From NCBI GenBank assembly GCA_030615505.1, contig JAUWZD010000009.1, positions 1,563 to 65,562 on the forward strand: a stretch of DNA of 64,000 nucleotides. Reading direction: 5' to 3'. How positions within the stretch are numbered: the first letter of the stretch is position 1; each line of letters begins with the position of its first letter. Shown here in pieces: positions 4,865 through 64,000 of this stretch. This DNA is from Spirochaetales bacterium (GTDB lineage: Bacteria; Spirochaetota; Spirochaetia; SZUA-6; DRHE01). Both the position numbers and the translations under genes were made by a program. The notes under the pieces are model-generated. The model was not told the DNA's origin. It did no database searches and saw nothing but the letters and a program-made list of their open reading frames with translations.

Positions 4865-5986
4865 ATGCCTTACCTCTGCTTTGCTTCGAATTTCTTATGG
4901 GTAATGATACTCGGTCTCTTCGGCCCCTCCCTTCCGGCTATCATCAGGGATCTCGACATCAGCTATGCCAGGGCAGGGCTCTTTTTCACATTCTTCTCTT
5001 TAGGCTCTCTTTTCGGCACTACTTTAGGCGGTATAGCAACAGATTATGTAAACAGGAAATTTCTCTACACCGGTGTAGCAGTCCTATTAGTTTGTGGCCT
5101 GGTCTGCATCGGTTTCGCCCCTTCATATCTGCTTATTCTTCTTATTATATTCCTATTAAGTCTCTTCGGGAGTCCCTTAGGCTCAATAGGTCAGAGCATA
5201 ATGCTCGATATGTTCCCGGAAAAGAGGGAGAGCTATCTCACAATTATGACCTTTTTTGCAGCATCCGGAAGTTTTTTAGCCCCACTGCTCGTTTCTTTAA
5301 ATTATACCGCCCATCTCTCCTGGAGGTGGCCCTTTATGGAAACAGCATGTTTGATAGCACTTCTAAGTATCTTTATTATATTGACTAAGATTCCCACCGC
5401 CAGGGCAAAGAGTGTAAGAAGGAAAAATTTCTTAGAGGTACTTAGAAACCCGAAAGTGCTTATAAGCTCTATTCTTATCTTCTTTTTGATGGCCACGGAT
5501 GTAGGCTTTCCCTACTGGTTAGCGGAGTATTTTAAATCGGAACTTAATGTCAGTATAAAGCTTTCCAGTGCGGTGATCAGTATATTTCTAGCCGGAGTCA
5601 TTTCGGTAAGACTTCTTATTACGCCATTGTTAAAGATAAGAAAACCGAAAGATATATTGAAGACCGGTTTGCTGCTTGCCATGGCCAGCCTGGCAGTCTT
5701 CCTTACTATCTCAACTGTATCGGTAAAAGTGGCGGCCGTGTTCTTCTTCGGTTTTGGCATAGGTCCGGTCTTTCCCCTATTAATGGCCAGGGGAACTGCG
5801 GCCTTCCCGGATCAGCCCGGTACAGTTACCGGGGTCCTCTTTGCATTCCTCTCCCTTGGCGGCATAATTTTTCCTCTTCTACTGGGCATTCTTGCTTCGA
5901 GATTTGGATTAGCGCAAATATATCTCTTTCACGGGGTGATCGTGCTTGGATTATTTATTACCGAATCAACTCTGTCACGCAAATGA
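4865..5986 (+). CDS. MFS transporter
   Basis: About 12 hydrophobic helices; GPSLP, D..NRK and GPVFP motifs. Confidence 0.88.
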   Translation: MPYLCFASNFLWVMILGLFGPSLPAIIRDLDISYARAGLFFTFFSLGSLFGTTLGGIATDYVNRKFLYTGVAVLLVCGLVCIGFAPSYLLILLIIFLLSLFGSPLGSIGQSIMLDMFPEKRESYLTIMTFFAASGSFLAPLLVSLNYTAHLSWRWPFMETACLIALLSIFIILTKIPTARAKSVRRKNFLEVLRNPKVLISSILIFFLMATDVGFPYWLAEYFKSELNVSIKLSSAVISIFLAGVISVRLLITPLLKIRKPKDILKTGLLLAMASLAVFLTISTVSVKVAAVFFFGFGIGPVFPLLMARGTAAFPDQPGTVTGVLFAFLSLGGIIFPLLLGILASRFGLAQIYLFHGVIVLGLFITESTLSRK

Positions 5987-6750
5987 TTTGCAGGCACATC
6001 ATGAATGCATGCAACGACCTCAGCGGCAATGGAGACTACGATCTCTGCAGCCGTGTCGCCGCCTATATTGATGCCCACCGGGGCAAAGAGGTATTCCGGC
6101 ACAGCTAAGCTGTCTTTCTCAAGGCGCTCGAGGGTTGTTTTTACTTTTTTACGTGAGCCGATAAGACCGATATATCTGAAATCACCTGGGATTTCCAGAA
6201 TCTGTTTCAGAACCGTATAATCGTGCTCATGCCCGTGGGTAGCGATAAAGGCGAACTCTGAAGCTTTAATTCTCTCTTTAACAGGTGATAGATCGTTATA
6301 ATCGCCTATTACAACGCTTTTTTGCGGGCCCTCTACAATTTTTTCCCGGACTTCCTTCCGGGAATCGAAAACAGTTACGTGAAAACCCAGGGATACTAAG
6401 ATAGGAGTGAGAGCCTGGCCGATATGCCCTCCCCCGAAGAGCATGAAAGATTTTACGCCTTTAAGATACTCTAAAACCAAAGTGGTCCGGCCCCCGCACT
6501 TCATTCCCAGTTCTTTAAGGTTGTACTCGAATATCTGATTCTCCCCGCTTTTAAGAACCTTACCGGCTTCCTCAATGGCCCGATGTTCTAAAGCGCCGCC
6601 GCCGACTGTTCCATAGGTCTCGTTATTATCAGTCAGAAGCAGCTTAAAGCCCGGTTTGCCAGGAGTACCCCTGCTGGATTTTACCACTGTGATCTGAACC
6701 ACGTTCATGCCGGATTCCAGCAGCTCGATGCACTTTCTGTAAATGTTCAT
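5929..6750 (-). CDS. xdhC: XdhC/CoxI-family molybdenum-hydroxylase maturation factor
   Basis: GTVGGGALE, LGMKCGG, FGGGHIG, ATHGHEHD, YIGLIGSRKK, APVG.NIG..TAAEI. Confidence 0.93.
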   Translation of the reverse strand: MNIYRKCIELLESGMNVVQITVVKSSRGTPGKPGFKLLLTDNNETYGTVGGGALEHRAIEEAGKVLKSGENQIFEYNLKELGMKCGGRTTLVLEYLKGVKSFMLFGGGHIGQALTPILVSLGFHVTVFDSRKEVREKIVEGPQKSVVIGDYNDLSPVKERIKASEFAFIATHGHEHDYTVLKQILEIPGDFRYIGLIGSRKKVKTTLERLEKDSLAVPEYLFAPVGINIGGDTAAEIVVSIAAEVVACIHDVPANHLRDRVDSVINNPSTITP

Positions 6751-6774
6751 GGCGTTATTATTAGGTCTTCATCC

Positions 6775-8124
6775 TTATGTCTTCTTGGGCAATTCCTTAA
6801 AGGCACTATCGATTCGCTCAAGCGCCTCATCAATATCCTTTTCTGTGTTCCCGGCAGATATGAAAGTCTCTTCGTATGCTGAGGGTGCAGTAAAGAAAAG
6901 GCCCTTATTAATCATGCTCATATACCATTTAAGCCATTGATCTTTGTCGTTTACTAAGGTCTCACGGTAATTCCGGGGTTTCTTCTCCATGAAAAAGACA
7001 GTCAACATGGGACCAATGCCGGCCGGCACGGCGCGAATACCGTGGCGACGGATGGAATCCTCGATTCCTTTTCTAAGCTTTTCGCCCATACGATCAGTAT
7101 GCTTGTATGCTTCCCTGGTCATGACCTTGGTGAGACAGGCTAAGCTGGCGGCCATCGATATTGGGTTGGCATTATAGGTCCCGAAATGAATCACCTCGCC
7201 CAGTGGATAGAACATATCCCAAAAATCTTCCGTCGCTCCGAAAGCAGCCAGGGGCAGTCCCCCCCCAAAGGCCTTGGAGAGGCATATTATATCCGGCCTT
7301 ACACCGGTTACTTCCGTACCGCCGCCCGGTGCCAGCCTGATTCCTACTTTTACCTCATCGAAAATAAGCACCACATTATAGTGCCTGGTAATCTCACGAA
7401 CCTTTTCAAGGTAGCCTTTATCGGGCAGGCACATACCGAAATTTGCTACGATGGGTTCCACTATGAGGCAGGCCACTTCACCGAGGTTTCGGTCAAGACA
7501 GCTTTTAAGGGCATCGGTATCATTCCACGGAACCACAAGTGTATTTTTAGCCGTATCGGGGAGGATTCCGGCGGATTCGATTACCGGGGTCGGGGCCCAG
7601 GCCGGCCCCATGTGCGCCGGCCGGTGAGGCTTATCGCTTATTAAAACAGCATCATGACAGCCGTGGTAACAGCCCTCAATCTTGATTATCTTGTCTTTTC
7701 CTGTGTATGCCCTGGCCAGGCGCAGTGCATACATGGTGGCCTCCGCCCCGGAATTGGCAAAGCGGAAAAAGCGCATGGAGCTGTATCTGCGCAGTAGCTC
7801 ACGCAGCAGCTTTTCAGTGATTCTACCCGGTATGCCGAACATACTGCCCTTTTCTGCCTGTTCTTTAATGGCCCGGTTAATTTCAGGGTGTGCATGACCG
7901 GCGATAATGGCTCCGTAACAGTTGTTGAAATCAATATACTCATTTCCGTCCACATCCCATATCCTGCCTCCCTTGCCTCTTTCTACAAAGAATGGATATG
8001 GTTCATAGTAACGGAAAGGGCTGGCAACCCCGCCCTGTATAAGATCGGCCGCTGAGGCGTGCAGCCCGGCGGATTTAGGTGTTCTCTTACGGAATTCATC
8101 AAGAATTGCTGGTAAATCCGACAT
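6775..8124 (-). CDS. class III PLP aminotransferase (glutamate-1-semialdehyde aminomutase-like)
   Basis: DVDGNEYID, NSGAEA, GCYHG, LIFDEV, SKAFGGGLP, GTYNANP. Confidence 0.9.
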   Translation of the reverse strand: MSDLPAILDEFRKRTPKSAGLHASAADLIQGGVASPFRYYEPYPFFVERGKGGRIWDVDGNEYIDFNNCYGAIIAGHAHPEINRAIKEQAEKGSMFGIPGRITEKLLRELLRRYSSMRFFRFANSGAEATMYALRLARAYTGKDKIIKIEGCYHGCHDAVLISDKPHRPAHMGPAWAPTPVIESAGILPDTAKNTLVVPWNDTDALKSCLDRNLGEVACLIVEPIVANFGMCLPDKGYLEKVREITRHYNVVLIFDEVKVGIRLAPGGGTEVTGVRPDIICLSKAFGGGLPLAAFGATEDFWDMFYPLGEVIHFGTYNANPISMAASLACLTKVMTREAYKHTDRMGEKLRKGIEDSIRRHGIRAVPAGIGPMLTVFFMEKKPRNYRETLVNDKDQWLKWYMSMINKGLFFTAPSAYEETFISAGNTEKDIDEALERIDSAFKELPKKT

Positions 8125-8171
8125 TGGGACCTCCTTTTCTGGCGTCTTCGTTTAATTGAAATTTTCTTAAT

Positions 8172-8199
8172 ATTCTAATATCTTCAATTAGTGTGTCAA
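8172..8199 (-). promoter_or_regulatory. sigma70-like promoter for aminotransferase-xdhC
   Basis: Minus strand TTGACA-N16-TAGAAT. Confidence 0.5.
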
Positions 8200-8217: not shown

Positions 8218-8236
8218 ATTCTCACTATTTGGAATC
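8218..8236. promoter_or_regulatory. candidate IclR operator (matches 63663-63681)
   Basis: Imperfect palindrome attctcactatttggaatc; reverse complement matches 15/19 to gattccatataatgataaa. Confidence 0.5.
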
Positions 8237-8384
8237 TGATTGAATAATCTATTTAGAAATAATTTGATTTCCTGATCCAACTAATTTATAATAATTATCA
8301 TATCTATTCTCAAGATTGTGGAGCAATGGATAAGTCCCTTTCATAAGGGATGTTGTTGCTTCAAAAAAAGTTAAGGAGGGATGT

Positions 8385-9920
8385 ATGGGCACGAATATGA
8401 TCGAAATTGTCGTGATCATCCTCTATTTAATCGGCATGATCGTCATCGGTGCGGTGCTTGCCAGAAGAATCAAGAGCAGCGATGACTATCTCGCCGCAGG
8501 CAGGAGGATGCCTATGTGGCTTGTTACCGCCACCCTGTTCGCCACATGGTGGGGTGGTGGTACGGTCTTAGGTGGTTCCGGCGCAGCCTTCTATGACGGT
8601 TTCCATGGGGTTATGTATGATCCCTATGGAGCGGGCCTTACCCTGATTCTGGCCGGGCTCTTATTCATGAAGATCATCCACGATGCTAAGGTAAACACCG
8701 TGGCACAGTTTTTTTCCTGCCGCTTTGGCCCCTGGGCGTCTTCCTGGTCGGGTATTCTCATGGTGCCGACCTACTGCCTATGGGGTGCTGTCCAGCTCGT
8801 AGCAATCGGAAAGATCTTTGAGGTGGTGCTGGGATGGCCTTATGCATTGACTATCTTGATCGGAACGGCCATTATCCTCGCCTATACCTTACTGGGAGGT
8901 ATGCTGGCCGTTGCCTGGACCGACTTTTTCCAGATTCTAATAGTACTGGCGGGGTTGATCATTATTCTGCCCCTGTCTATCAATCTGGCAGGTGGATGGA
9001 GCAAGGTAGTTGAAGCCACGCCAAAGCATTTCTTTGCAATTTTCCCGGCCAAGGGCTCGGAGATGGCGCCCCCGGACCTGGGCGGCTGGCTGTGGTGGAT
9101 CAGCGCAATACTGGGGGTCGGCCTCGGCTCACTGGCCTGTCCTGATCTCTACCAGAGAGCGATTGTGGCTAAAACCGGTAAGGCGGCCAGTAAAGCGGCG
9201 CTTACAAGCGGTGTAGGCTACTGGCTGCTGGGCGTAATACCCGTTTATCTTGCCTTTGTGGCCATAGCCCTGATCGGCCAGGGTGTCCTGGATGGGGCTG
9301 CGATAGAAGCGGACAGTGAAAAGATTGTCCTGCTCTTGACACGGGCTGTTCTTCCCCCCGTGCTATCCGCGATTTTTATTGCTTCACTACTTGCGACAGT
9401 CATGTCATCCGGTGACTCTGCAATGTTTGCTCCTGCAGCCATTCTTTCCAATGACCTCTATAAGCCGCTTTACGAGAAATCGGCCAAAAAGGCACTATCC
9501 GATAGTGGTCTGATTCTCTCCACGAGGGTCTCAGTAGCTATCATTGCCGCTATTGCGCTTATCATCGGCTTCTTCTACGCAAATATGTATGACCTTTTAA
9601 TCGTAGCTTTTGAGCTTCTCTTTCACATGCTTTTCTTCCCGCTCATCCTGGGCGTCTACTGGAAGAAGGCCAATGCTCCGGGAGCTATCTCGGCTATGAT
9701 CACAGGTTTGGTACTCTCAGTCGGCTGGTTCATCATTGCAGGTTCCCTGTTCCCTGAGCCGGAGTGGTTATCCGTTTTAGGCCCCGGAACAACAGGCGGT
9801 GTTGTGATGATCATTGTCTCTTTAGCCACTCAGAAGAGCCATCCGCCCAAAGCCCTGGTATCTTCGGACGGCAAGTTCCTGAAATGGTCTGACCTGCCCA
9901 GCCCTTTAGCGGGCAAGTAA
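8385..9920 (+). CDS. sodium:solute symporter (SSS) family, choline-transporter-like
   Basis: DYLAAGR, TLFATWWGGG, YTLLGGMLAVAWTDFFQ, ATVMSSGDS; about 13 TM helices. Confidence 0.93.
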   Translation: MGTNMIEIVVIILYLIGMIVIGAVLARRIKSSDDYLAAGRRMPMWLVTATLFATWWGGGTVLGGSGAAFYDGFHGVMYDPYGAGLTLILAGLLFMKIIHDAKVNTVAQFFSCRFGPWASSWSGILMVPTYCLWGAVQLVAIGKIFEVVLGWPYALTILIGTAIILAYTLLGGMLAVAWTDFFQILIVLAGLIIILPLSINLAGGWSKVVEATPKHFFAIFPAKGSEMAPPDLGGWLWWISAILGVGLGSLACPDLYQRAIVAKTGKAASKAALTSGVGYWLLGVIPVYLAFVAIALIGQGVLDGAAIEADSEKIVLLLTRAVLPPVLSAIFIASLLATVMSSGDSAMFAPAAILSNDLYKPLYEKSAKKALSDSGLILSTRVSVAIIAAIALIIGFFYANMYDLLIVAFELLFHMLFFPLILGVYWKKANAPGAISAMITGLVLSVGWFIIAGSLFPEPEWLSVLGPGTTGGVVMIIVSLATQKSHPPKALVSSDGKFLKWSDLPSPLAGK

Positions 9921-9943: not shown

Positions 9944-11779
9944 ATGTATGCGGTTACAGGCAAAATACTCACTGTAAATCTGAAGACTAAAGGACTTCAG
10001 GCTGAAGATATCCCGGAGCGGATGTACTTAGAGTATCTGGGCGGATACGGCTTGGGCGCAGCCCTGCTTATGCTTAGAGCGAGGATGGACCCTGCCGCCG
10101 ATCCACTGGGCCCGGGAAATATCTTAGGGTTTGCAGCCGGGTATCTTACCGGAACAGGCGCATACATTGCCTCCCGTTTCATGGTATTTGGAAAATCCCC
10201 ATCCACTCAAGGATGGGGAGATTCCAACTGCGGAGGTTTCTTCGGTAAGAAGATGAAGCAGGCCGGCTTTGATGTAATCCTGTTTACAGGAACCTCTACG
10301 GAGCCGGTTTATCTGCTTGTGGATCAGGGATCCCCCCAAATCCAAAAAGCTGACTGGCTCTGGGGAAAAGACTGTTATGAAACCGAAGACCTCCTGAAAG
10401 AAAAGCACGGTAAGGACTGCGAGGTGGCCTGTATCGGCCCTGCGGGGGAGAAGCTTTCCGCCGTAGCCGGTATCTCCACAGATAAGGGCAGGTTTGCAGC
10501 CCGCTCCGCCCTTGGTGCGGTAATGGGATCCAAGCGGGTTAAGGCGGTGGTCTTGAAGGGCGATAATTCGATAGACTTAGCAGACCCGGAGCGAATGAAA
10601 GAATTGAGAAAGGAGCACCTGCAGGTCTTTAAAGTGGACCTGGGGAAAGACCTTTCTACTTACGGTACCCCCGTATTTTATAAGGATTACCTGGATTCTG
10701 GAGACACCCCGGTAAAAAACTGGTCCTCCTCTATAGAGGAGCTGAGCGGCAAGCATATGGATGCCGAGCAGGTTTTAAAATACCAGCAAAAACGCTACGC
10801 GTGCAGTGGCTGTCCTATCGGATGCGGGGGTCACGTAAAGGTGGAGAAAGGCGCGTTTAAAACCGAAACCACGCTCCATAAGGTGGAATATGAGACTATG
10901 GGTATGTTCGGTTCCAATCTATTGAATGAGAATGTTGAAGCCCTGATAAAAATCAATGATCTCTGCAACCGCTACGGCATGGATACGATAGGCTGCGGGG
11001 CGCTCTGCGCCTTTGCAATCGAATGCTATGAAAAGGGCTTAATCGATAAGGAGCAAACCGGGGGTTTAGAGCTTGCCTGGGGTCATGCCGAAGTAATTGT
11101 CTCACTGGTGGAGAAGATCGGAAAGTCAGAGGGAATAGGCGCTGTGCTGTCCGGGGGCTTTGAAGAGGCTATCAGGCATTTTGGACCGGAGAGCATGCAG
11201 TACGCCATGGCTGTAAGAAATGAAGCCCTTCCGGCCCATGATCCCCGCTGGTCCTCCGGTCTGGCTCTAACCTACTATGCAGATCCCACACCGGCCCGCC
11301 ATACCCAGGGCTCCACCACCTTTCCTTTAGCCGGTTATGAAATGCCGGAGATTCCCGCTGCCCGGGCATCCGGAAGGGCTAAATACCACAACGACAATGT
11401 TAACCTGACCCACGTTTTAAACTCTGCCGGTTTGTGTTTGTTCGGCTATTTTATCCTGGATTATAAAACCCTGCCCGAGTTTCTTAAGGCAGCGGACGGC
11501 AGAAGTTGGGATTTGAAGGAGCTTGAGAAAATAGGCCTGAGAATCACTGTTTTGCGATACCTCTTTAATTTCCGGGCCGGGATAAGGCTGAACCAGTACA
11601 CCTTCCCTGAACGGGCGTTAGGAATGCCGCCTCTCACTTCCGGTGCTACCAAGGGAGTGCAGGTCGATTTAGATACCATGCTGAAAGAGTACCTTGAAGA
11701 GATGCACTGGGATCCGGATACAGGACTGCCTTCAGAGAGAGTGCTTGAGGAGATGAACCTTGCACAATATTTAACTTGA
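9944..11779 (+). CDS. aor: aldehyde:ferredoxin oxidoreductase (W/Mo bis-pterin family)
   Basis: YLGG.GL, KSP, CIGPAGE, GAVMGSKRVKA, CSGCPIGC, EYET, GMDTI, HDPR. Confidence 0.93.
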   Translation: MYAVTGKILTVNLKTKGLQAEDIPERMYLEYLGGYGLGAALLMLRARMDPAADPLGPGNILGFAAGYLTGTGAYIASRFMVFGKSPSTQGWGDSNCGGFFGKKMKQAGFDVILFTGTSTEPVYLLVDQGSPQIQKADWLWGKDCYETEDLLKEKHGKDCEVACIGPAGEKLSAVAGISTDKGRFAARSALGAVMGSKRVKAVVLKGDNSIDLADPERMKELRKEHLQVFKVDLGKDLSTYGTPVFYKDYLDSGDTPVKNWSSSIEELSGKHMDAEQVLKYQQKRYACSGCPIGCGGHVKVEKGAFKTETTLHKVEYETMGMFGSNLLNENVEALIKINDLCNRYGMDTIGCGALCAFAIECYEKGLIDKEQTGGLELAWGHAEVIVSLVEKIGKSEGIGAVLSGGFEEAIRHFGPESMQYAMAVRNEALPAHDPRWSSGLALTYYADPTPARHTQGSTTFPLAGYEMPEIPAARASGRAKYHNDNVNLTHVLNSAGLCLFGYFILDYKTLPEFLKAADGRSWDLKELEKIGLRITVLRYLFNFRAGIRLNQYTFPERALGMPPLTSGATKGVQVDLDTMLKEYLEEMHWDPDTGLPSERVLEEMNLAQYLT

Positions 11780-12222: not shown

Positions 12223-13372
12223 GAGGCTGTAAAAAAACAACTTCCCCTATTTAAAAATATTTGCTATCCTGTATAAAGTAGTTGTGTTATCGCTTGATGA
12301 CACAACATGAATATTCACATTCACTGGGAGGGGAGAGTGGATAGTAAGCTGGAAGTGCATAAATGTCAGTGTCCGATTTGTCGGCAGGAAGCCTACCATC
12401 CTGACAAAGAATTGCATCATCGAATTAATCTGTTCCTCAGTCGTTTAGATGAGCAACAACGCAGATGGTATATTGCTCTTGAGAGCAAGCGAATTGGTCA
12501 CGGTGGGGATCGCTTATTGTTGCAGATCACAGGTATGGACGAAAAAACTATCAGACGCGGGCGACAGGAGCTGGAAAGAGAGCTTGAAGACCGGCCGGTT
12601 GACAAAATACGTCTACCAGGGGGTGGCAGACCACCCATAGAAAAAAAAAGAAGAGGGAATCGAAGAAGCACTTGAACAAATAGTGTTGCCTGAGACGGCG
12701 GGTGATCCCATGAGCAGCCTGAAGTGAGTGAGAAGCAGCCTGCGGGAATTGGCTTATCGTTTAGAGCAGGTTGGTTATGGTATCAGTCCACCCACGGTAA
12801 GCAGACTCTTAAGGAAAAATGACTACTCGTTGAGGGGAAATGTTAAGAAAATCGAAGGCAGTAATCATCCTGAGCGAAACAAGCAATTTGAATACATTGA
12901 GGAGCAAAAAGCGCTCTTTTCTGCTTTAGGACTGCCCATAATCAGCGTTGATGGCAAAAAGAAGGAGCTGATTGGTAATTTCAAGAACGTAGGCCTTAGT
13001 TGGTGCAAAGAGCCGGATTAGCAGTAACGGTTTGTCACTATCCTACCGGTTGCTCAAAGTGGAATCCCATCGAACATCGTATGTTTAGCTTTATCAGTGG
13101 AAATTGGTCCGGTAAACCTTTGAGAAGTTTTGAAATAATGTTGTCCTGTATTCGGGGCACCTCTACCAAAACCGGATTACAGATTGAAGCTTTTATGGTT
13201 GAGGATGATTATAAGAAAGGGAAAAAGGTTACAGACGAAGAAATGGAAAAGCTTAATATGCAGCGTCATTCAGTTTGTCCTCTCTGTAATTACTCTTTCA
13301 AGCCTCGAAGAAATGATAATCCATATCTGAAAGAAATATGACATAACCGGGAAGTTGTTTTTTTACAGCCCC
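12223..13372 (+). mobile_element. ISAzo13-family insertion sequence, internally deleted, with intact terminal inverted repeats
   Basis: Left IR gaggctgtaaaaaaacaacttccc; right end gggaagttgtttttttacagcccc; TA on both flanks. Confidence 0.88.
12307..13341 (+). pseudogene. ISAzo13 (Rhodopirellula-type DDE) transposase, disrupted
   Basis: LDEQQRR, GGGRP, A9 run, GDPMSSLK*, ISVDGKKKELIGNFKN, HYPTGCSKWNPIEHRMFS; nonsense codon, frameshifts and missing central DDE segment. Confidence 0.9.
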
Positions 13373-14372: not shown

Positions 14373-14400
14373 TTTAATATTATTTCAAAGGAGGACTAAA

Positions 14401-53852: not shown

Positions 53853-54150
53853 TTGGGAGGCATGCTGGCCGTTGCCTGGACTAACTTTTTTCAGATTTTA
53901 ATAGTACTGGTGGGGTTGATCATAATTCTGCCCCTGTATATCAGTCTGGCAGGAGGATGGAGTAAAGTAGTTATGGCTACATCAAAGAATTTCTTTGCCA
54001 TTTTACCGGCCAAGAGTTCGGAACTAGCGTCTCCGGACTTAGGCGGCTGGCTGTGGTGGATCAGAGCCATACTGGGTGTCATACCCGTTTACCTTGCCTT
54101 TGTGGCTATGGCCCTGATCAGCAAGGGTGTCCTGGATGGGGCCGTGATAG
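53853..54150 (+). pseudogene. diverged partial copy of the SSS gene at 8385..9920
   Basis: GGMLAVAWTNFFQIL...PDLGGWLWWI.AILG/VIPVYLAFVA aligns with 8893-9305, with a 117-bp deletion. Confidence 0.9.
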
Positions 54151-54495: not shown

Positions 54496-54837
54496 TCACG
54501 GTGAAAACATCTCTTGTAAGATTGTCAGGACATTATTAAGAACTACTGACGGTAATCGACCGAGAGACCGTATAATACGATCGTGATCGACAGTACGGAT
54601 TTGATCAAGAACTATATAACCAACCTTCCTCTGAAACCGACAGGTGACACGAAAAGGATATGGATGATCGCCGGTTGTCATTGGAGCAACGATGAATGTC
54701 CTTAAGTGGGTGTTCAGTTCATCTGGTGAAACCACGACACAAGGACGAGTCTTCCGTATCTCGCTACCAAGAGTCGGATCTAGATTGACGAGGAAAATAT
54801 CTCCTCGATGTACCTCCTCGACCGTCACCATTGCCAC
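54496..54837 (-). CDS. mazF: MazF/PemK endoribonuclease toxin
   Basis: RGDIFLVNLDPTLGSEIRKTRPCVVVS, VAPMTT, DQIRTVD. Confidence 0.95.
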   Translation of the reverse strand: MAMVTVEEVHRGDIFLVNLDPTLGSEIRKTRPCVVVSPDELNTHLRTFIVAPMTTGDHPYPFRVTCRFQRKVGYIVLDQIRTVDHDRIIRSLGRLPSVVLNNVLTILQEMFSP

Positions 54838-56192: not shown

Positions 56193-57797
56193 TCAAACTG
56201 TGGGGACCACGAATTGCTCGACGAAGTATCGAGCGGACAGAGGATCACCGGTCGCCTTTTCGATCATTTCATTCCAGTGGTAAAGTTTCCCCGGCTTGAA
56301 TATCTTGTACCTGAAGAACTGTCCCACCCTTTTCTGGTTTACAAACTTCACCTTCTCATGGTTATCTGCCAGATGGATGTTCTGCACAATATAGTGATGC
56401 ATCTGGGAGGCGAGCAATTCACCCAGCAGGTAGTTGTGATAGTAACAAGGTGCCGAGGCAAAATGGATCTTGGAGGCCCAGTCCGGTTCACTCCGGCCTT
56501 CGGGCGTATTCACTAACTGATACTTTTTAACCGTCTGCCACCAGAGCGCATTGAGGTCCTGATCGGGATTATCGTAGAGATGCTTTTCAAAAGCGTACAT
56601 CACCATGGCCCAGCGAGCAAAGATGAGTTGTTTGAGCCGGGCGTACCGGGAACTCACCTGCTCGATTTCCGTCCGCTGCTTATCGGAAAGCCCTATCATG
56701 GCCTGCATCCAGCCGGCATCTCGGCTCAATCGGCCAAAGAACATGGCCACTGCTTCGGTTGTAAAGATATGAGCCGGCTCTCGAAGCAGGTACGGTATCT
56801 GTGGATCGTGATACAGATCGTACACCCCGTGACCCAATTCGTGCAGGATCGTCTCCATCCAGCGCTCAACATTCTTGATATTGCACAAAATCCTTACGTC
56901 CCCCTCGCGATCCATGTCCTCGCAGAAGGCGTGGGGATTCTTTCCGTCTCGCTCGTAAAGATCGCTGCGATCGAGTATAGATTCTACCGGCAGATCCAAA
57001 CTTGCATAGAAACGCTTTGCTATTTCTTTCACATCCCGGTCTCTGTAATAGGCGTCCAGGTCAAGATCGTAGACCAGGGGTGTTTCCTGGAAGAACGGAT
57101 CGTGATAATGCCAGGGCATGAGATCAGGCGGATCAACACCGTATGTTTTTGCCAGCATCCCATCCAGCTCTGCCTTTAACTCGGAAAAGGGTCCACGGGT
57201 CAGCTTATCGAGTTGATTGAAAATGGAATCTAACTCATCCACCTCTTGCTCCGCTGTGGTAAGGGAAAGGCTGTGGTAATTATCAAATCCTAATCCCCGG
57301 GCCCCTTCGTTTCGCAGTCTGATCAGTTGTAAGAGATCCTCTGCAACCCACTGGCCCACCTGTTTGCTGGCAAGCCAGGCCTCCTTTCTGTTGTCTGAAT
57401 CTGTTTCGGATTTCAGTATCTCTTTGATCTCGTTATCGGTGACCTTCTTCCCCCTTAAGATGCCCCGAAAGGTGCTGAACTTCCTGTCAACCATAGTCTC
57501 CAACTCCACGATCTTCGTGAGCAGGTTCGGCTCTATCTGATTCGCAAGGTAGGCATTGTACAGAACATCGAGTTGGCGGGTCATTACCCTGTCCTCTACC
57601 GATCCGGTATTTTTAAGCTTTTCCAGCCGAGCGAACTCTTCCGTGTTGCTGTAGATCCTCCGTATTTCAAGCTCCAGCTTGCCGTATCTATCGTATGCCG
57701 TAGACCTACCGGAGATCGCTGCCTCCCAATAAGCAAGCTTTACCTGTTTCATCAAAGGCTTGATTCGTTTGAGGTGTTTTTCAATAAACTCGATCAA
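56193..57797 (-). CDS. M3/M2-like zinc metallopeptidase (oligoendopeptidase-type)
   Basis: RN..AR.LGF.NY, PW.Y, DLY.R.GK, HELGH, EAVA, W..K.H, YY.NY. Confidence 0.88.
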   Translation of the reverse strand: MIEFIEKHLKRIKPLMKQVKLAYWEAAISGRSTAYDRYGKLELEIRRIYSNTEEFARLEKLKNTGSVEDRVMTRQLDVLYNAYLANQIEPNLLTKIVELETMVDRKFSTFRGILRGKKVTDNEIKEILKSETDSDNRKEAWLASKQVGQWVAEDLLQLIRLRNEGARGLGFDNYHSLSLTTAEQEVDELDSIFNQLDKLTRGPFSELKAELDGMLAKTYGVDPPDLMPWHYHDPFFQETPLVYDLDLDAYYRDRDVKEIAKRFYASLDLPVESILDRSDLYERDGKNPHAFCEDMDREGDVRILCNIKNVERWMETILHELGHGVYDLYHDPQIPYLLREPAHIFTTEAVAMFFGRLSRDAGWMQAMIGLSDKQRTEIEQVSSRYARLKQLIFARWAMVMYAFEKHLYDNPDQDLNALWWQTVKKYQLVNTPEGRSEPDWASKIHFASAPCYYHNYLLGELLASQMHHYIVQNIHLADNHEKVKFVNQKRVGQFFRYKIFKPGKLYHWNEMIEKATGDPLSARYFVEQFVVPTV

Positions 57798-57977
57798 TTG
57801 TCACTCCTTCTCTTTATTCCTTTTTTACGGTATGGTCGTGAAAATTTCCTTGAGCATGCATTTGATTATGGAGCTTCCTGTGAGCAGATTATTGATAGTA
57901 AAATTTAATTGACAGTAAAATTCATATCACAGGATGGTCGAGATATCAAGGAGATGAGAGAAATTTTCACTAATATA

Positions 57978-58044
57978 AAATGCCGGAGATTCCCGCTGCC
58001 CAGGCATCCGGGCGGGCTAAATACCACAACAACAATGTCAACCT
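57978..58044 (+). repeat. 67-bp copy of an internal aor segment (11340-11406)
   Basis: 62/67 identical; encodes MPEIPAA.ASGRAKYHN.NVNL. Confidence 0.9.
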
Positions 58045-58128
58045 TTCTAAAAGCACGAGAGAAATCTATATGACTGGGGCTTAAATGCGAAGATCTTTTC
58101 TTATAAATGTTTATTAATACTTATTGGC

Positions 58129-59052
58129 CTATGCCCTGCCCATAACCAGAGCAAGCAGTGCCATTCTCAAATATACACCGTTATGGGCCTGGCGGAAGTA
58201 TGCGGCATTGGGAAGCACATCCACATCGGTGGAGATTTCATCGACCCGCGGCAGGGGATGCATAATGGCAATGCCTTTCTTCCCTTTCTCAACAAGTTCC
58301 CGGTTCAGCACATAGCTCCCTTTAAGGCGCTCATACTCAGCCGGATCTTTAAAACGCTCCTGTTGAATGCGGGTCATATAGATTATGTCTGCCTGAAGGG
58401 CGTCTTCGATCCGGGCTGTACTATCTACCGTTATTCCTCTATCCTCCATATCCGAAGTGATGCGGTCCGGCATTCTAAGCTCATCCGGGGCGCAGTATAT
58501 ATACTGAGGATTAAAAGGAGCCAGCGCATAGGAGAGTGAGTGCACGGTGCGCCCGTATTTAAGATCACCCACCATGGCGACTTTAAGCCCCTCCAGGCCT
58601 CCCTCCTCCTTCTGAATAGTGTATAGGTCAAGCAGAGCCTGGGTGGGATGCTGTCCGGATCCGTCTCCGCCGTTGATGACAGGAATCTCCACAGCGTCCG
58701 CTATAATCTTTGCTCCGCCTGTCTGGGGCTGGCGTATCACGATACAGTCCACATACCCGGCCACGGTTTTACCCATATCCGCTAAGGACTCTCCCTTTTT
58801 GGCTGATGAACTCCCTGCATCGGCCACTGTAATCGGCCGGGCTCCCAGCCTGTTTATGGCTGTTTCAAAGGAAAGCCGTGTGCGGGTGGATGGCTCTAGA
58901 AAGATAACAGCTACCAGTTTGTCTTTGAGCAGGTCAGAGATTCGCTGTTTTTTCACAAGCTCTTCCATCTGTGCAGTAACCTTCATTATATGCAGAAGAT
59001 CCTCTTTAGATAGATCTTCTGTAGTCAGTATGTCCCTGCCCTCAAAACTCAT
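58129..59052 (-). CDS. pyrB: aspartate carbamoyltransferase catalytic subunit
   Basis: EPSTRTRLSFE, KGESL.D, HPTQALLD, GDLKYGRTVHSL, TRIQQERF, MHPLPR. Confidence 0.93.
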   Translation of the reverse strand: MSFEGRDILTTEDLSKEDLLHIMKVTAQMEELVKKQRISDLLKDKLVAVIFLEPSTRTRLSFETAINRLGARPITVADAGSSSAKKGESLADMGKTVAGYVDCIVIRQPQTGGAKIIADAVEIPVINGGDGSGQHPTQALLDLYTIQKEEGGLEGLKVAMVGDLKYGRTVHSLSYALAPFNPQYIYCAPDELRMPDRITSDMEDRGITVDSTARIEDALQADIIYMTRIQQERFKDPAEYERLKGSYVLNRELVEKGKKGIAIMHPLPRVDEISTDVDVLPNAAYFRQAHNGVYLRMALLALVMGRA

Positions 59053-59537
59053 CTCTTACTCCTTTCACGGATCTTCTCAGCGCCGGTTTTTATAGCTTTA
59101 ATAATGTTAATGTATCCTGTACAGCGGCAGAGGTTGCCCCTAATAGCCTCTTTTATCGCAGAATTGGAGGGATCCGGATTTTTATCCACCAGGGCCTTTG
59201 CCGATAGAATCATTCCCGGGGTACAGAACCCGCACTGTACTGCACCCTCTTCAATAAAAGCCTCCTGCAGGGGATGGAGCTCTTTATTCCCTTCCGGGAC
59301 AAGCCCCTCGATTGTAGTGATCTCCCGGCCGGCTGCAGAAACCGCCAGGGTCTGGCAGGAAAGAATAGCCCTGCCGTTAAGAATTACTGTACAGGCGCCG
59401 CACTCTCCGATACCGCAGCCGTATTTGACTCCTATTAGATGAAGCTTGTCCCGCAGTACATTCAGCAGAATTTCATTAGGCTTAACCTCAATGGAATGCT
59501 CTTTTCCATTGACTTTCAAAACAATGGGTATTCTCAT
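59049..59537 (-). CDS. xanthine dehydrogenase family small [2Fe-2S] subunit (CoxS-like)
   Basis: GCGIGECGACTV, QCGFCTPG, GNLCRCTGY. Confidence 0.95.
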   Translation of the reverse strand: MRIPIVLKVNGKEHSIEVKPNEILLNVLRDKLHLIGVKYGCGIGECGACTVILNGRAILSCQTLAVSAAGREITTIEGLVPEGNKELHPLQEAFIEEGAVQCGFCTPGMILSAKALVDKNPDPSNSAIKEAIRGNLCRCTGYINIIKAIKTGAEKIRERSKR

Positions 59538-60436
59538 TCTTTTACCTCCCTCCCGGCTCCGGATCTATTCCAGGCCGTTGTAAGGGTATCCTGGATCAAC
59601 ACCGAGGCTGCCTGTGTTTTATACACGGCTGTGGAGCGTGCATTCCGCGGAGAAATATCCTGGCTCACCATTTCCGCTGCCTCAGCGAGTAAGCTTGCAG
59701 TAAGCTTTTTTCCGGCAAGTGCTTTTTCCACATTAAAAGCCCGAACCGGCTTAGGCGCCACGGCGCCCAAGGAAATCCGCACATTCTTGCATATGTCTCC
59801 TTCACCTTTCACATACACGGCACAGTTTATCTTGGCTATATCAAGCTTAACACGTCCGATCTTTATAAAGGCTGAACCTGAGGATGCATCAGGTTCAGGA
59901 ATCAGTATTGATGTTAATAATTCTCCCTGTTCCAGTACCGTCTTTTTAGGCCCGGTAAAGAATTCTTCAATGGGTAGAGTTCTCCGTTCGATTTCTCCTC
60001 GTCCGTTTTTTCTACTTACTTCCACTTTGGCATTCAGCACTATAAGAGGAGGCGCGGCGTCTGCCCCGGGAGAGGCGGTACAGAGATTGCCCCCTAAAGT
60101 AGCCATATTCCTTATCTGCATGCCTCCCATACTGTTCACTGCCTCACAGAGGGCAGGATATTTCTTCTTTATTCGATCATCTTCTTCAATTTTGCACAGC
60201 AATGTCGCAGGCCCAATTCTAAATCCATGCTCAAACTCTACGAAATCAAGCTCGTTTATACCAAGAATGGAAACCAATGCCTTCGGTACTATCTCCCCGG
60301 TTTTAATATCATTCAGGAGATCGGTTCCTCCTGCAAGAACCTTCACTCCCTCCGACTTCAGGTATTCCAGTGCTTCTTCTACAGTTTTAGGGCTGTAATA
60401 GTCAAAATCGCAGTCGATCACCTGTGAATTAGACAT
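59534..60436 (-). CDS. xanthine dehydrogenase family FAD subunit (CoxM-like)
   Basis: AGGTDL, QIRNMATLGGNL, ASPGAD. Confidence 0.95.
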   Translation of the reverse strand: MSNSQVIDCDFDYYSPKTVEEALEYLKSEGVKVLAGGTDLLNDIKTGEIVPKALVSILGINELDFVEFEHGFRIGPATLLCKIEEDDRIKKKYPALCEAVNSMGGMQIRNMATLGGNLCTASPGADAAPPLIVLNAKVEVSRKNGRGEIERRTLPIEEFFTGPKKTVLEQGELLTSILIPEPDASSGSAFIKIGRVKLDIAKINCAVYVKGEGDICKNVRISLGAVAPKPVRAFNVEKALAGKKLTASLLAEAAEMVSQDISPRNARSTAVYKTQAASVLIQDTLTTAWNRSGAGREVKE

Positions 60437-62780
60437 GGTCCCTTCCTTCCTTTACCGCTTTTAAAATTGTCTCCGGCAGGATCGGCAGCCTGGTGAAATA
60501 GATACCTGTCGCATTCTGAATCGCTAAGGCAATGGCTGCCGGCACGGGGTTTAAAGCGGCCTCGCCGATTCCCTTAGCGCCCATTGGACCTGTGGGCTCG
60601 TATGTGTCGGCAAAAAACACCTGGAAATCTTCCGGATCCGGGAGATCTTCGGGTCCAAGCATTTTATAATTGGTCAGCAGGCCCTTACACCGAAGATTCC
60701 CGGTTTTTTCATCGTACTGCGTATCTTCCACTAAAGCATATCCGGCGCCGCGGTAGAAACCGCCGTGAAGCTGTCCCCGTGCAAGAGTGGGATTGATAAC
60801 CACACCGGCATCGCTTCCGGCCGCAACCCTTTTTATCTCTACCCGGCCGGTCTGCATATCCACTTCAACCTCGACAAAATAGGTGGTATATGCCGGAGGG
60901 CAGTTGACCTTGCGTATGCTCCCGGCTGCAATTGCGGTGCCCCAATCCTTGTTCATGGCAGTCTGGGCCGCTTTGGCTAAGGTAATATGTTTTTCAGGCA
61001 TTCCCTCAACATAGATTATCCCCTGGCCCAGCTTAAAATCAGGCTTTGTCTTGAGCGAGCCCACCGGGGCGTCCAGAATCCTGGATGCATACTCTAAAAG
61101 CACTTTTTTTGCCTCCCGGGCTACCTCTAAAACAGCCCCGCCTCCGCAGTATACGCCTCTTGTAGCATGGGTGCAGACATCATAACCGGTTGAGCGTGTA
61201 TCCGCCGGAGATATACCTACTTTTTCAAAGGGCACTCCGAACTCCTCAGCAACAAGCTTGGCAGCCGCATCCAAGGTTCCTCCGCCGTGGTCCATCAGGG
61301 CGGTTAAAATATCGATTGAGCCGTCCTCATTGACTTTTACCTGGGCGGTGGTGAAGTCTTTGACTTCTCCCGGAACAGGAGCTCCGGTTCCAGAGGTATG
61401 GAATCCCCTGGCCATGCCTATACCCTTTCTGAACCGGCCCGTCTGGGTTTTTGGATCCGGGCGGTCTTTCCAGCCGATGAGTTCTGCGCCTCTATGGAGG
61501 AGTTCTTTCACGCCGTCTGAATGGATGAGGGAGCGTACCGTGGGTCCCTGGCCCCAGAATATTTCGCCCAACCCCACATAGTTCTTAATACGTATCTCAA
61601 TCGGATCTATACCTAGTCTTTCCGCCAGCATGTTCATAGTTGTTTCAACGCCGAAGGTTACCTGGGGCGCTCCGTACCCCTGCATGGCGCAGGTCGGCAC
61701 TTTATTGGTATATACTGCCACGCCCTCATATTTAAGATTGGGCATCCGGTAGAGGGAATGCCACCAGCCGGCCAGTACGCCTAAATAGGATAAGGCCTGA
61801 ATATGATGGGAACCGATATCCACAGAGGCCTTCATCTCTCCGGCAACCAAAGTTCCATCCTTTTTTGCCCCGATCTTGAGTGTGTAGCGTGAGGGATAGC
61901 GGCAGTGATCATACATGTCTTCCTCGCGGGATTGAACAATCCTGACAGGTTTACCTGATTTTAAGGCCAGGGCCACCGTAATCAGGACTACGGGGTTTGT
62001 ATGTATCCCGGAGCCGAAATGGCCGCCCCCGGTAATCCTGACCACATTGAGCTTGTTCAGGGGAATATCAAAGATATCTCCGATCAAGATCCGGGTATTA
62101 TGCAGGGCCTGGGTTGTAGGCCAGAGGGTGATTCCCCCGTCTGGCTCGGGCCTGCACACGCAGGATCTGGGCTCGAGCTGGCAGTGATATACTCTGGGAG
62201 TGGAAAACTCATTCTCCACAATCACATCAGCCTCTTTGAATCCCTTATCCACGTCCCCTTCAGCAACCTCTCTCGTACAGGCTATGTTGCTCTTGATTGT
62301 GATTTCCCTGTCTTCCAGATATACCTTCTCATGGATCAGGTCTTTCCTGGCAGCAAGGGCTTGCTCAATTGTCATATAGGAAGGCAGCATCTCCCATTCG
62401 ACCTTTACCGCCCCGGCTGCTCTTGCTGCAAGTTCCTCGGTTTCCGCAGCTACTGCGCCGAAAGGATCGCCCACCTGCCTCATGTGATCGGTAAGCACCT
62501 GCCAGTCCTTATAAGTTGCCCGGGGTACTGAGACCTGACGCAAATTAAAGTGCTTCTGGGGTGTATTCTTAAAGCTTAAGCACACCGCCCCTAAGCTTAA
62601 AGCTTCGGAAAAATCGATGCTTTTAATCCGGGCATGTGGATAGGGGCTGCGCAGAATCCGGCCGTGAAGCATTCCTGTAAGGTAAATATCGGAAGGATAG
62701 ACTTCCCTGCCGGTCACCCGGGCAATTCCATCCTTCCTTGGAAAATCTTTCCCCAAAAAGTGATATTTCTTATTGCTCAT
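60429..62780 (-). CDS. xanthine dehydrogenase family molybdopterin subunit (CoxL-like)
   Basis: RSPYPHARI, LEPR, TQ, GGGHFG, QGYGAPQ, D.G..INP, GQ..GG, GAKGIGE. Confidence 0.95.
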   Translation of the reverse strand: MSNKKYHFLGKDFPRKDGIARVTGREVYPSDIYLTGMLHGRILRSPYPHARIKSIDFSEALSLGAVCLSFKNTPQKHFNLRQVSVPRATYKDWQVLTDHMRQVGDPFGAVAAETEELAARAAGAVKVEWEMLPSYMTIEQALAARKDLIHEKVYLEDREITIKSNIACTREVAEGDVDKGFKEADVIVENEFSTPRVYHCQLEPRSCVCRPEPDGGITLWPTTQALHNTRILIGDIFDIPLNKLNVVRITGGGHFGSGIHTNPVVLITVALALKSGKPVRIVQSREEDMYDHCRYPSRYTLKIGAKKDGTLVAGEMKASVDIGSHHIQALSYLGVLAGWWHSLYRMPNLKYEGVAVYTNKVPTCAMQGYGAPQVTFGVETTMNMLAERLGIDPIEIRIKNYVGLGEIFWGQGPTVRSLIHSDGVKELLHRGAELIGWKDRPDPKTQTGRFRKGIGMARGFHTSGTGAPVPGEVKDFTTAQVKVNEDGSIDILTALMDHGGGTLDAAAKLVAEEFGVPFEKVGISPADTRSTGYDVCTHATRGVYCGGGAVLEVAREAKKVLLEYASRILDAPVGSLKTKPDFKLGQGIIYVEGMPEKHITLAKAAQTAMNKDWGTAIAAGSIRKVNCPPAYTTYFVEVEVDMQTGRVEIKRVAAGSDAGVVINPTLARGQLHGGFYRGAGYALVEDTQYDEKTGNLRCKGLLTNYKMLGPEDLPDPEDFQVFFADTYEPTGPMGAKGIGEAALNPVPAAIALAIQNATGIYFTRLPILPETILKAVKEGRDHV

Positions 62781-62810: not shown

Positions 62811-63593
62811 TTACCGTTTCTTATGATAATCCAGTATCCATTGAGGATAATCGGCTCCAAGTCTTCCTGAAACATCAATACTTGCATCAATAAACAGCTC
62901 GGCATATTCAGAAAGCTGTTTCTCGTGCAGATCAACTGATATCCCTACCATTGCCATAGAGCCGATCACCCGGTTTTGACTGTTGAAGATCGGTGTTGCC
63001 AGGGCATTGATGCCGTTATGGAACTCCTGGTAATTATAGGAGACACCCGATTTATAGATTTCATCAAGCTTCTTCTGCAGCGTAACAGGATCCGTGATTG
63101 TTCGTGCGGTATAAGATTTAAGATCATTTTCTTCAATGATCTTTTTTCTTTCCTTATCCGGAAGGAAGGCTAAGACGGCCTTTCCCGAGGCCGAGCAATG
63201 CAGAGGCATGACTTCGCCGCGTCCCACAGAGACCCTGGTATTGATATGTCCGCAGATCTCCATTGCGATACAGTATTTGCCATTGTGGAGGGCAAAGAAG
63301 GTGGTTTCTTCAGTTTCCCTGTGAAGGTCTTCCAAATAGGGCAGGCAGATCGCGGCCACATCCATTCCCTCTACTACAGATTCTGCTAAACGCAGATGCG
63401 CAAAGCCCAAAAAATAGCGGCTATCCGACTTTCGCTGATAGATATAATCATATTTTTTTAAAGAAGCCAGTATTCGGTAGCATGTGGATGGTGGGATATT
63501 CAGAGTCTCGCTGATTTTTTTGTTGGTTAACCCGGTCCTGTAGTGGATGCGCAGGATTTCTAAAATACTATGAATTTTATCAATTGAAGGCAT
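62811..63593 (-). CDS. IclR-family transcriptional regulator
   Basis: N-terminal HTH (PSTCYRILASL), PLHCSASGKAVLA, YTARTITD, ALATPIF. Confidence 0.93.
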   Translation of the reverse strand: MPSIDKIHSILEILRIHYRTGLTNKKISETLNIPPSTCYRILASLKKYDYIYQRKSDSRYFLGFAHLRLAESVVEGMDVAAICLPYLEDLHRETEETTFFALHNGKYCIAMEICGHINTRVSVGRGEVMPLHCSASGKAVLAFLPDKERKKIIEENDLKSYTARTITDPVTLQKKLDEIYKSGVSYNYQEFHNGINALATPIFNSQNRVIGSMAMVGISVDLHEKQLSEYAELFIDASIDVSGRLGADYPQWILDYHKKR

Positions 63594-63662
63594 AAAACAT
63601 TTCTATCCCGACTTTAAAATATGGGCTTTAATCCAGGCTGTCAATATCGTATAAAAGAATAG

Positions 63663-63681
63663 GATTCCATATAATGATAAA
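63663..63681. promoter_or_regulatory. candidate IclR operator in divergent promoter
   Basis: gattccatataatgataaa, 18 nt from a minus-strand TTGACA; matches 8218-8236. Confidence 0.5.
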
Positions 63682-63798
63682 GTTCCAACCGGGTTGAGGT
63701 TGACAGTTAAAATATATATATTAACGTGTATTGATTAAAGTAGGGGGGCTGGACCTCTGATTATGAACAAGAATTGCGGCCTTTAGGGGGGTTAGAAG

Positions 63799-64000
63799 AT
63801 GCAGACAATATTGAAAAGCAAAACTGTGGAAGTAAGGATAGATACTGAAGGCCCTGTTGTAATGATAGGTGAGAGGATCAACCCCACAGGACATAAAAAG
63901 CTGGCTGCGGCATTGAAAGAGGGGAACTTCGGCTATGTCCGGGAGCTGGCGGCCCGGCAGGTAGAGGCGGGCGCTCATGTGCTGGACGTGAATGTCGGCG
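63799..64000 (+). CDS. pterin-binding methyl-THF:corrinoid methyltransferase (AcsE/MetH-like), partial at window edge
   Basis: Not in the ORF track; MQTILKSKTVEVRIDTEGPVVMIGERINPTGHKKL...ARQVEAGAHVLDVNVG. Confidence 0.85.
   Translation, partial: MQTILKSKTVEVRIDTEGPVVMIGERINPTGHKKLAAALKEGNFGYVRELAARQVEAGAHVLDVNVG

Follow-up and report, generated by a model that had tools for sequence, protein, structure and literature searches.

A predicted IclR regulon split between two loci of a spirochaete genome, and the oxygen-free pathway it may control

A 64,000-nucleotide stretch of the genome of a Spirochaetales bacterium (the window; contig C157 of the assembly, JAUWZD010000009.1, positions 1563–65562, in an assembly of 4.44 Mb and 171 contigs) contains two groups of metabolic genes, loci A and B, that lie ~55 kb apart. 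Do they belong to one regulon that has been cut in two, and what would such a regulon be for? A division of this kind under an IclR-family regulator had been proposed from the window alone (the original prediction). A motif derived independently of the window, the contiguity of the two gene sets in other genomes and an alignment of promoter spacers together make it very probable that the split regulon is real, and that it comprises at least three loci. In what follows, G000 is the source genome, G-numbers are related genomes, L-numbers loci and C-numbers contigs.

The gene content of both loci is as originally read, according to Pfam domain calls on the window proteins. At locus A, the leftward operon begins with a class-III HemL-like aminotransferase gene (AT3; 6775–8124; PF00202), followed 25 nt after its end by an xdhC-family maturation factor gene (5929–6750; PF02625, 61 bits, and PF13478, 105.8 bits). 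On the opposite strand are a sodium:solute symporter gene (SSS; 8385–9920; PF00474) and a predicted tungsten-type aldehyde:ferredoxin oxidoreductase gene (AOR; 9944–11779; PF02730 and PF01314). Locus B is a single leftward operon, with the methyltransferase gene described below facing outward. It comprises an IclR-family regulator gene (62811–63593), the three subunit genes of an enzyme of the xanthine dehydrogenase (XDH) family, here XDH-1, and, as its last gene, pyrB for an aspartate carbamoyltransferase (ATCase) catalytic chain (58129–59052; TIGR00670). The XDH-1 genes encode the molybdopterin (Mo) subunit (60429–62780; PF01315, PF02738 and PF20256), the FAD subunit (59534–60436; PF00941 and PF03450) and the [2Fe-2S] subunit (59049–59537; PF01799 and PF00111). 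The regulator has the helix-turn-helix domain (PF09339, 27.5 bits) and the effector domain (PF01614, 117.6 bits) of its family, both over cut-off.

The first suggestion of shared regulation came from the two divergent promoters. Site A (8218–8236; ATTCTCACTATTTGGAATC) and site B (63663–63681; in reverse complement, TTTATCATTATATGGAATC) are imperfect palindromes in opposite orientation, identical at 15 of 19 positions and forming the top 19-mer match between the two intergenic regions. A leftward −35 hexamer, TTGACA, is found 18 nt from each (8199–8194 and 63644–63639). The originally reported palindromes and their orientation are present, and the spacing, reported as nearly the same, is equal. 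On the simplest alternative account, two AT-rich quasi-palindromes in AT-rich divergent promoters (G+C of 29% and 37%) are alike by chance and no regulation is shared. The shuffling result speaks for this account and against the regulon, since a likeness of 15/19 or better was reached in 78 of 300 dinucleotide shuffles of both regions. The pairwise likeness, being at chance level, was dropped as evidence for sites.

A motif was therefore sought without the window. Orthologues of the locus-B regulator, with 60–72% identity, were found in 16 of the 40 related genomes in which they were sought. Stretches of 20 kb from 14 of them were used, the remaining two orthologues being on very short contigs. 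De novo expectation maximisation (EM) on the 250 nt upstream of these 14 iclR genes, with the window excluded from training, gave an 18–19-bp imperfect palindrome, TTCTCAcTATaTGGAAT followed by c or g. It occurs at 17.6–27.0 bits in 11 of the 14 promoters, between −60 and −135 from the start codon and mostly 17–18 nt before a TTGACA. When the matrix was scanned over both strands of the whole of G000 (~8.9 million positions; in relatives, over the fetched stretches only), site A ranked first (8219–8236, 26.5 bits) and site B second (63663–63680, 22.0 bits). This is the motif construction and genome scan that had been proposed as a check, and it places the motif above background. In six simulated third-order Markov genomes the maxima were 20.1–24.2 bits; a score of at least 26 bits was reached in none and one of at least 22 bits in two. 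Site A, which exceeds the maximum of all six, is thus significant genome-wide. Scores near 20–22 bits arise 0.5–2 times per random genome, a caution against the regulon that leaves site B and the two further sites described below dependent on their position and not on score alone. That the likeness of sites A and B is accidental is nevertheless very improbable, given that precisely these two sites head the genome ranking of a window-free matrix, that both have the same spacing to the −35 hexamer, that orthologous sites exist in G020 and G016, and that the gene sets are contiguous in other genomes.

The scan also points to genes outside the window. The third-ranked site (C39:5602–5619, 21.7 bits) has a TTGACA 9 nt further on and, ~600 nt downstream of it, another hydroxylase operon, XDH-2. 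The genes of this operon are ordered FAD, 2Fe-2S, Mo, and it is 72–83% identical to the XDH-2 adjoining iclR in relatives. The sixth-ranked site (C92:802–819, 19.3 bits) lies ~100 nt before the start of a carbamate kinase gene that spans the ends of contigs C92 and C39. These sites, with A and B, give four operators at three loci in G000, and the predicted regulon accordingly has at least two members beyond loci A and B, namely XDH-2 and carbamate kinase. In relatives, the motif precedes iclR itself, SSS (G020, where it is also found in the spacer between the AT3 and methyltransferase genes), carbamate kinase (five genomes), and a pyridoxal phosphate (PLP)-dependent decarboxylase and a second aminotransferase type, AT3b (G027 and G039). 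In four genomes (G020, G013, G017 and G002) it is situated between divergent XDH-1 and XDH-2 operons. Regulator and feeder genes are on separate contigs in G039 (C2 and C45, respectively), a split like that of G000, and all four matches with at most one mismatch in that genome fall in one or the other of these contigs. One further operator match in G020 (C1:3103222; L061:5222–5239; 24.3 bits) is far from the clusters; it falls between a ParA/HypA group and a glutamate-dehydrogenase-type gene, which begins ~125 nt downstream of it.

A wider search with the Mo subunit recovered 80 loci, the 34 closest and 46 remote ones (757 kb). The motif and the IclR orthologue go together across these loci. 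An IclR orthologue is found at 24 of the closest loci, 13 of which have sites of at least 18 bits. Such sites also occur at five more of the closest loci; four of these have theirs in the spacer between XDH-1 and XDH-2 or ahead of the gene for the Mo subunit, and one also has one ahead of a binding-protein gene. Among the 46 remote loci, none has an IclR orthologue and none has a site of at least 18 bits. Flanking AT3 or AT3b genes (scored at ≥60% identity) were counted at four closest loci and one remote locus, AOR at three and none, and SSS at none and one.

Some results weigh against this regulon. No motif was found upstream of three of the 14 IclR orthologues in the EM set, and 11 of the 24 IclR-bearing loci lack a site of at least 18 bits. 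The AT3b-SSS-AOR-M3 peptidase genes of G017 and G018 have no site of at least 14 bits in the fetched loci. Ranks 4 and 5 of the G000 scan (C90:950 and C137:8196) were set aside as probable chance matches in apparently coding DNA; the latter is inside a LacI-SBP open reading frame (ORF), and the stretch around the former reads like coding DNA, without a closed ORF of at least 80 aa. In addition, a second IclR paralogue (50–52% identical) stands beside the feeder genes in G020 and G016, and may be the true regulator of the feeder promoters there. The motif might thus be real and bound by another protein, either this paralogue or a global factor, with loci A and B only loosely connected. The paralogue is indeed within 6–10 kb of AT3, methyltransferase, AOR and SSS in both genomes, and the sites of G020 are at the end of the paralogue gene and before those same feeder genes. 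Such a binder is nonetheless improbable: G000 has no such paralogue, its next IclR-family matches being 27–29% identical, the motif stands upstream of the 60–72% orthologues themselves in 11 of 14 cases, and it is absent from the 46 remote XDH-1 loci, which lack the regulator. The palindrome is more readily read as the predicted recognition site of the locus-B IclR protein.

If A and B are parts of one regulon, the question is how they came to be apart. In G027 (L040), pyrB-XDH1-iclR faces decarboxylase-AT3b-SSS-AOR-XDH2 in a single 15-kb block, and the gene sets are also joined in L087, L088, L091, L099 and L105, which amounts to six other genomes in total. The neighbourhood search proposed with the original prediction thus recovers co-localisation. 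Orthologues of AT3 (78%) occur in G020, G016 and L087, those of SSS (69–75%) adjoin AOR in six relatives, and those of the M3-family peptidase (41–42%) follow AOR or SSS in G017, G018 and G020. The single spacer between AT3 and the methyltransferase gene in G020 and G016 carries two operators, and was aligned with both window spacers. The AT3-side operator of the relatives lines up with site A and its TGTCAA, and their methyltransferase-side operator with site B together with the TTGACA 18 nt past that site. The cut would therefore have fallen between two ancestral operators, and the alignment indicates that loci A and B derive from rearrangement of one ancestral AT3–methyltransferase promoter.

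The DNA between the loci fits a past rearrangement, as it contains a truncated ISAzo13-type transposase gene (13000–13341), ParE and PemK/MazF toxin genes (52853–53179 and 54496–54837) and gene remnants. The decayed SSS and AOR copies reported beside locus B are there, and are small. The first is a rightward SSS paralogue fragment (53847–54149; tblastn, 60% identity over 140 aligned positions, query residues 168–307) 4 kb from locus B. The second is a rightward 25-aa AOR remnant (57974–58048; tblastn, 84% identity to AOR residues 465–489) 80 bp from the ATCase gene. Between the two are ParE/PemK toxin genes and a leftward M3-family peptidase gene (56193–57797; Pfam), a conserved neighbour of SSS and AOR in relatives. 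A 41-aa remnant elsewhere in G000 (C142:12086–12196), which matches the C-terminus of the locus-B ATCase at 71% identity, is a further trace of duplication or rearrangement. The case illustrates how rearrangement can scatter a locus whose operators would keep the pieces co-regulated.

The position of the operators bears on the sign of regulation. Upstream of AT3 is a leftward sigma-70-like promoter site, TTGACA-16 nt-TAGAAT (8172–8199; 11/12 consensus matches), and operator A is followed on its other side by a rightward one, TTGATT-17 nt-TATAAT (8264–8292; 10/12). The iclR operon has a leftward site of the same sigma-70-like kind, TTGACA-17 nt-TATTTT (63616–63644; 10/12), with a rightward promoter-like site (63694–63722) beyond operator B and a further TTGACA at 63700–63705, so that operator B stands 18–19 nt from −35 hexamers on both strands. 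At both loci, the centre of the predicted operator is ~62.5 nt upstream of the inferred leftward transcript start. This placement resembles that of IclR-type activators and suggests activation from a class-I-like position, or repression via further weak half-sites. A weak TTCT(C) repeat nearer the −35 hexamer in several IclR-orthologue promoters would allow repression by a tetramer. A hairpin with a T-rich run was also observed at 8334–8351, in the predicted 5′ leader of SSS and 34 nt before its start codon, and may be an attenuator or leader structure.

The enzymes under these operators were compared with NCBIfam equivalog and subfamily cut-offs. The locus-B carbamoyltransferase classifies as a true ATCase: it scores 364.2 bits with TIGR00670 (363.8 in the genome search; cut-off 236.95) and 314.1 bits with NF002032 (cut-off 263), and the motifs STRTR, HPTQ, RiQqER (RxQxER) and HPLPR are kept in comparison with PDB entries 1ML4 and 2RGW. 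XDH-1 has every Pfam domain of a three-subunit Mo hydroxylase over cut-off in three adjacent genes: the hammerhead and two MoCo-binding domains, FAD_binding_5 with CO_deh_flav_C, and two [2Fe-2S] domains. It is assigned to the XDH family without being a xanthine dehydrogenase equivalog, its Mo subunit scoring 470 bits against a cut-off of 916 (NF007426), 469 against 780 (NF043082) and 339 against 784 (pucD). Neither XDH-1 nor XDH-2 reaches the cut-off of any characterised NCBIfam equivalog. The best PDB match of the XDH-1 Mo subunit is 1RM6, 4-hydroxybenzoyl-CoA reductase, at only 281 bits; that identity was rejected for XDH-1, as its FAD subunit reaches 117 bits on the corresponding model, whose cut-off is 404.55. 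A close paralogue of XDH-1 fills a 6-kb contig of its own (C78; L006), with FAD and 2Fe-2S subunits and a Mo subunit 57% identical, an identity within the range of non-spirochaete orthologues. AT3 passes the subfamily model NF000818 (427.3 bits, cut-off 398) and fails the hemL equivalog TIGR00713 (435.7 bits, cut-off 527.3), and so appears to be a HemL-like transaminase and not HemL. AOR has both domains of its family (AFOR_N, 229 bits; AFOR_C, 329.5 bits).

The xdhC gene bears on the observation that locus A has xdhC without an XDH-family enzyme and locus B the reverse. As gene content this complementarity holds. The maturation factor itself, which has XdhC_CoxI and XdhC_C domains while its best models (NF045664 and TIGR02964) stay below cut-off, is not assignable to locus B alone, with ~10 XDH-family loci and two xdhC-like genes in G000. 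Orthologues of xdhC occur 6–13 kb from the iclR/carbamate-kinase cluster in G017, G018, G013 and G003. The gene is predicted to be co-transcribed with AT3 under operator A, and XdhC probably serves XDH-1 and XDH-2, though not only these.

The outward-facing gene of locus B encodes a pterin-binding methyl-tetrahydrofolate:corrinoid methyltransferase (PF00809; NF005719, 294.8 bits against 259); it starts at 63799 on the forward strand, reaches the window end at 64000 and continues to contig position 66203. The 224-aa ORF after it matches the MetH activation domain (PF02965) at E = 2e-4, below cut-off. A link with corrinoid demethylation, raised as a possibility in the original prediction, gains some support from G020, where the orthologous methyltransferase gene is followed by corrinoid proteins and MtmB/MttB-type genes. 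Separately, the DNA between the C39 operator and XDH-2 (C39:5640–6165) resembles, when read by eye, the C-terminal portion of a B12-binding (corrinoid) protein, and genes for MttB, a corrinoid protein and RACo activase are located upstream on C39.

Conserved neighbours in relatives add the enzymes that the window lacks. A hydantoinase-like amidohydrolase accompanies the cluster in G039 (beside AOR), G027 (beside XDH-2), G034 and G020. In G039 it scores 351.3 bits with the D-hydantoinase/dihydropyrimidinase model TIGR02033 (cut-off 393.25), followed by allantoinase, ErtD and dihydroorotase models. XDH-1, XDH-2, ATCase, carbamate kinase and the amidohydrolase form one operon in a Desulfobacterales metagenome-assembled genome (L117); in L129 the first four are in one run, and the amidohydrolase is ~9 kb off on the other strand. 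Orthologous twin-hydroxylase/ATCase/carbamate-kinase modules occur in Desulfobacterales, Thermoleophilia, Acidobacteria and several archaeal groups. The decarboxylase of G027 and G039 is a group-II, PLP-dependent enzyme (best PDB match 4OBU, 182 bits). In G039, G009, G005 and G020 the cluster contains or adjoins hisD or hisC, in two cases preceded by a site.

What could such a set of genes do? The proposed order of uptake, transamination, AOR oxidation, ring hydroxylation and carbamoyl transfer fits the conserved genes, and can be extended as follows. The IclR protein would switch the promoters of A, B, XDH-2 and carbamate kinase through its 18–19-bp palindrome. SSS would import a primary amine or its acid; AT3 would transaminate the amine to an aldehyde, which AOR would oxidise to the acid with ferredoxin. 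XDH-1 and XDH-2, both matured by XdhC, would hydroxylate the N-heterocyclic ring twice, and the hydantoinase-like amidohydrolase would open it to N-carbamoyl-L-aspartate. ATCase, running in reverse, would then yield aspartate and carbamoyl phosphate, from which carbamate kinase would make ATP. The motif, its positions and the synteny are computed; each of these enzymatic steps is inferred from the genes, and the general logic of the pathway is moderately favoured. Two hydroxylations, a cyclic amidohydrolase, ATCase and carbamate kinase imply a ring that becomes N-carbamoyl-aspartate, while decarboxylase, transaminase and AOR imply an aryl- or heteroaryl-acetic acid derived from an amino acid or amine. 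A histidine or histamine route via imidazole-4-acetate and 5-carboxymethylhydantoin meets both requirements and agrees with the hisD/hisC neighbours in four genomes, hence the tentative guess, leaning towards doubt, that histamine or imidazole-acetate is the substrate. In guts, sediments and spoiling protein, histamine ranks among the major biogenic amines.

Several results weigh against this substrate, or against a dedicated catabolic pathway. In G020, G039, G027 and G034, no ATCase other than that of the cluster exceeds the cut-off, and a dedicated catabolic ATCase paralogue was accordingly rejected for these four relatives. Only one carbamate kinase gene was matched in G000. hisD is single-copy in all five genomes checked and hisC has one to four matches at E ≤ 1e-50, which makes them weaker evidence for a dedicated histidine module. 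No CarB (TIGR01369) was found at E ≤ 1e-60 in G000, G020, G039, G027 or G034, whereas the same control search found it in 14 of 14 reference genomes; the best matches in G000 and G020 score 28–40 bits. In this lineage, carbamoyl phosphate may come from carbamate kinase or catabolic carbamoyltransferases alone. The ATCase, hisD and carbamate kinase genes may thus be housekeeping copies, which weakens the substrate guess. The decarboxylase of G027 and G039 scores 59.4 and 71 bits with the histidine decarboxylase model PRK02769, far from its cut-off of 305, and G000 has no orthologue of it. The hydantoinase-like gene of G000 (C82) has no site of at least 14 bits in the 17 kb around it. In family f8 the cluster includes a PyrD/PyrK pair, with which an orotate-type route would agree just as well.

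These same points keep a pyrimidine or orotate-type reading in place as a serious rival, unlikely as it is on balance. Here the regulon would be real and its core would be pyrB, carbamate kinase as the source of carbamoyl phosphate, PyrD/PyrK and a dihydroorotase-like enzyme, serving the synthesis, salvage or fermentation of a pyrimidine carboxylate that the hydroxylases make or consume, with the amine module feeding it or merely co-regulated. The sole ATCase of four relatives and the failure to find CarB in five genomes suit this reading, as do the PyrD/PyrK genes that stand with the amidohydrolase in the clusters of G039, G027 and G034, and the 213–233 bits that the cluster amidohydrolase scores on the dihydroorotase model. 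The amidohydrolase scores higher as a hydantoinase (351 bits) than as a dihydroorotase (226–236 bits), however, and each of the five genomes carries, away from the cluster, another PyrC-like gene with a better score. There is no obvious natural pyrimidine whose conversion to orotate would call for an amine–aldehyde–acid feeder and two hydroxylations, hisD or hisC neighbours the cluster in four genomes, and transporter-linked IclR regulators mostly control catabolism. Taken together, an IclR regulon, its split and one oxygen-free pathway remain the probable best explanation. A bolder version is only a possibility, and the less favoured side of it: a widespread undescribed oxygen-free pathway for histamine or imidazole-4-acetate, in which the sole ATCase is reversed and, in these spirochaetes, arginine and pyrimidine synthesis may also draw carbamoyl phosphate and carbamoyl-aspartate from the route, under one IclR switch with its operator near −62.5.

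The predicted system shares parts with several known ones. The AllR regulon of E. coli likewise has an IclR-family regulator, palindromic operators in divergent promoters and several separate operons, and converts a ureide to carbamoyl phosphate and ATP via carbamate kinase during anaerobic allantoin use. The operator differs, and so does the enzyme set, which here comprises two XDH-family hydroxylases, a HemL-like transaminase and a tungsten-type AOR, with a true ATCase taking the place of oxamate carbamoyltransferase. The locus-B IclR scores 93 bits with the AllR NCBIfam model, below cut-off, and the two regulators are related at family level only. The purine/urate cluster of E. coli and gut anaerobes (xdh, ygeW, ygeX/Y, hyuA, yqeA, ssnA and ygfK) also joins an XDH-family enzyme, a cyclic amidohydrolase, a carbamoyltransferase and carbamate kinase for oxygen-free ATP from an N-heterocycle. 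By contrast, the present carbamoyltransferase is an ATCase over the TIGR00670 cut-off that reaches only 42.5 bits with the YgeW model, the Mo subunits are not xanthine dehydrogenase equivalogs, and an amine-to-acid feeder is attached.

The aerobic use of histamine by the hin genes of Pseudomonas putida U also begins with a transaminase that forms imidazole-acetaldehyde, then passes through imidazole-4-acetate and ends in aspartate. That route employs an NAD aldehyde dehydrogenase and an O2-dependent imidazoleacetate monooxygenase, proceeds through formiminoaspartate and yields no carbamoyl phosphate, whereas here AOR and water-dependent Mo hydroxylases would replace those enzymes. Orotate fermentation in Clostridium oroticum, with its carboxymethylhydantoinase (EC 3.5.2.4), has the same N-carbamoyl-L-aspartate hub. 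Its cyclic amidohydrolase acts on dihydroorotate or L-5-carboxymethylhydantoin, and a class-1B-type orotate reductase is present in some clusters, as here. To our knowledge, orotate fermentation in C. oroticum involves no Mo hydroxylases or amine feeder. A literature search found no gene-level account of that system or its carboxymethylhydantoinase.

The gene combination had not been recognised as a described pathway in the original prediction, and a full-text literature search, judged from its result listings, likewise returned no description of such a pathway or regulon, nor any anaerobic opening of the imidazole ring of histamine or imidazole-acetate. The regulon yields testable parts from uncultured spirochaetes, namely one regulator, an 18-bp operator, a transporter and about eight enzymes, and a biosynthetic ATCase is probably reversed in it for energy conservation.

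G000 has other gene groups besides these. One group on C77 (2873–19345; L003) comprises hydantoinase A/B, an opine-type dehydrogenase, an OTCase-like carbamoyltransferase, a transketolase-like enzyme, a ferredoxin, a second AOR, a third XDH-family enzyme, an amidohydrolase and a PreA-like dehydrogenase. Another on C81 (8801–15237; L004) has two carbamoyltransferases, an SSS gene, an MtmB-like gene and a corrinoid protein, and both appear to be further clusters for nitrogen compounds. Within the window, positions 13482–21437 hold genes for a GNAT protein, a branched-chain-type ABC transporter, a non-Pyl MttB-family methyltransferase (18841–20223) and a PreA-like DHO_dh/4Fe-4S protein (20220–21437), which may be another quaternary-amine or N-heterocycle module.

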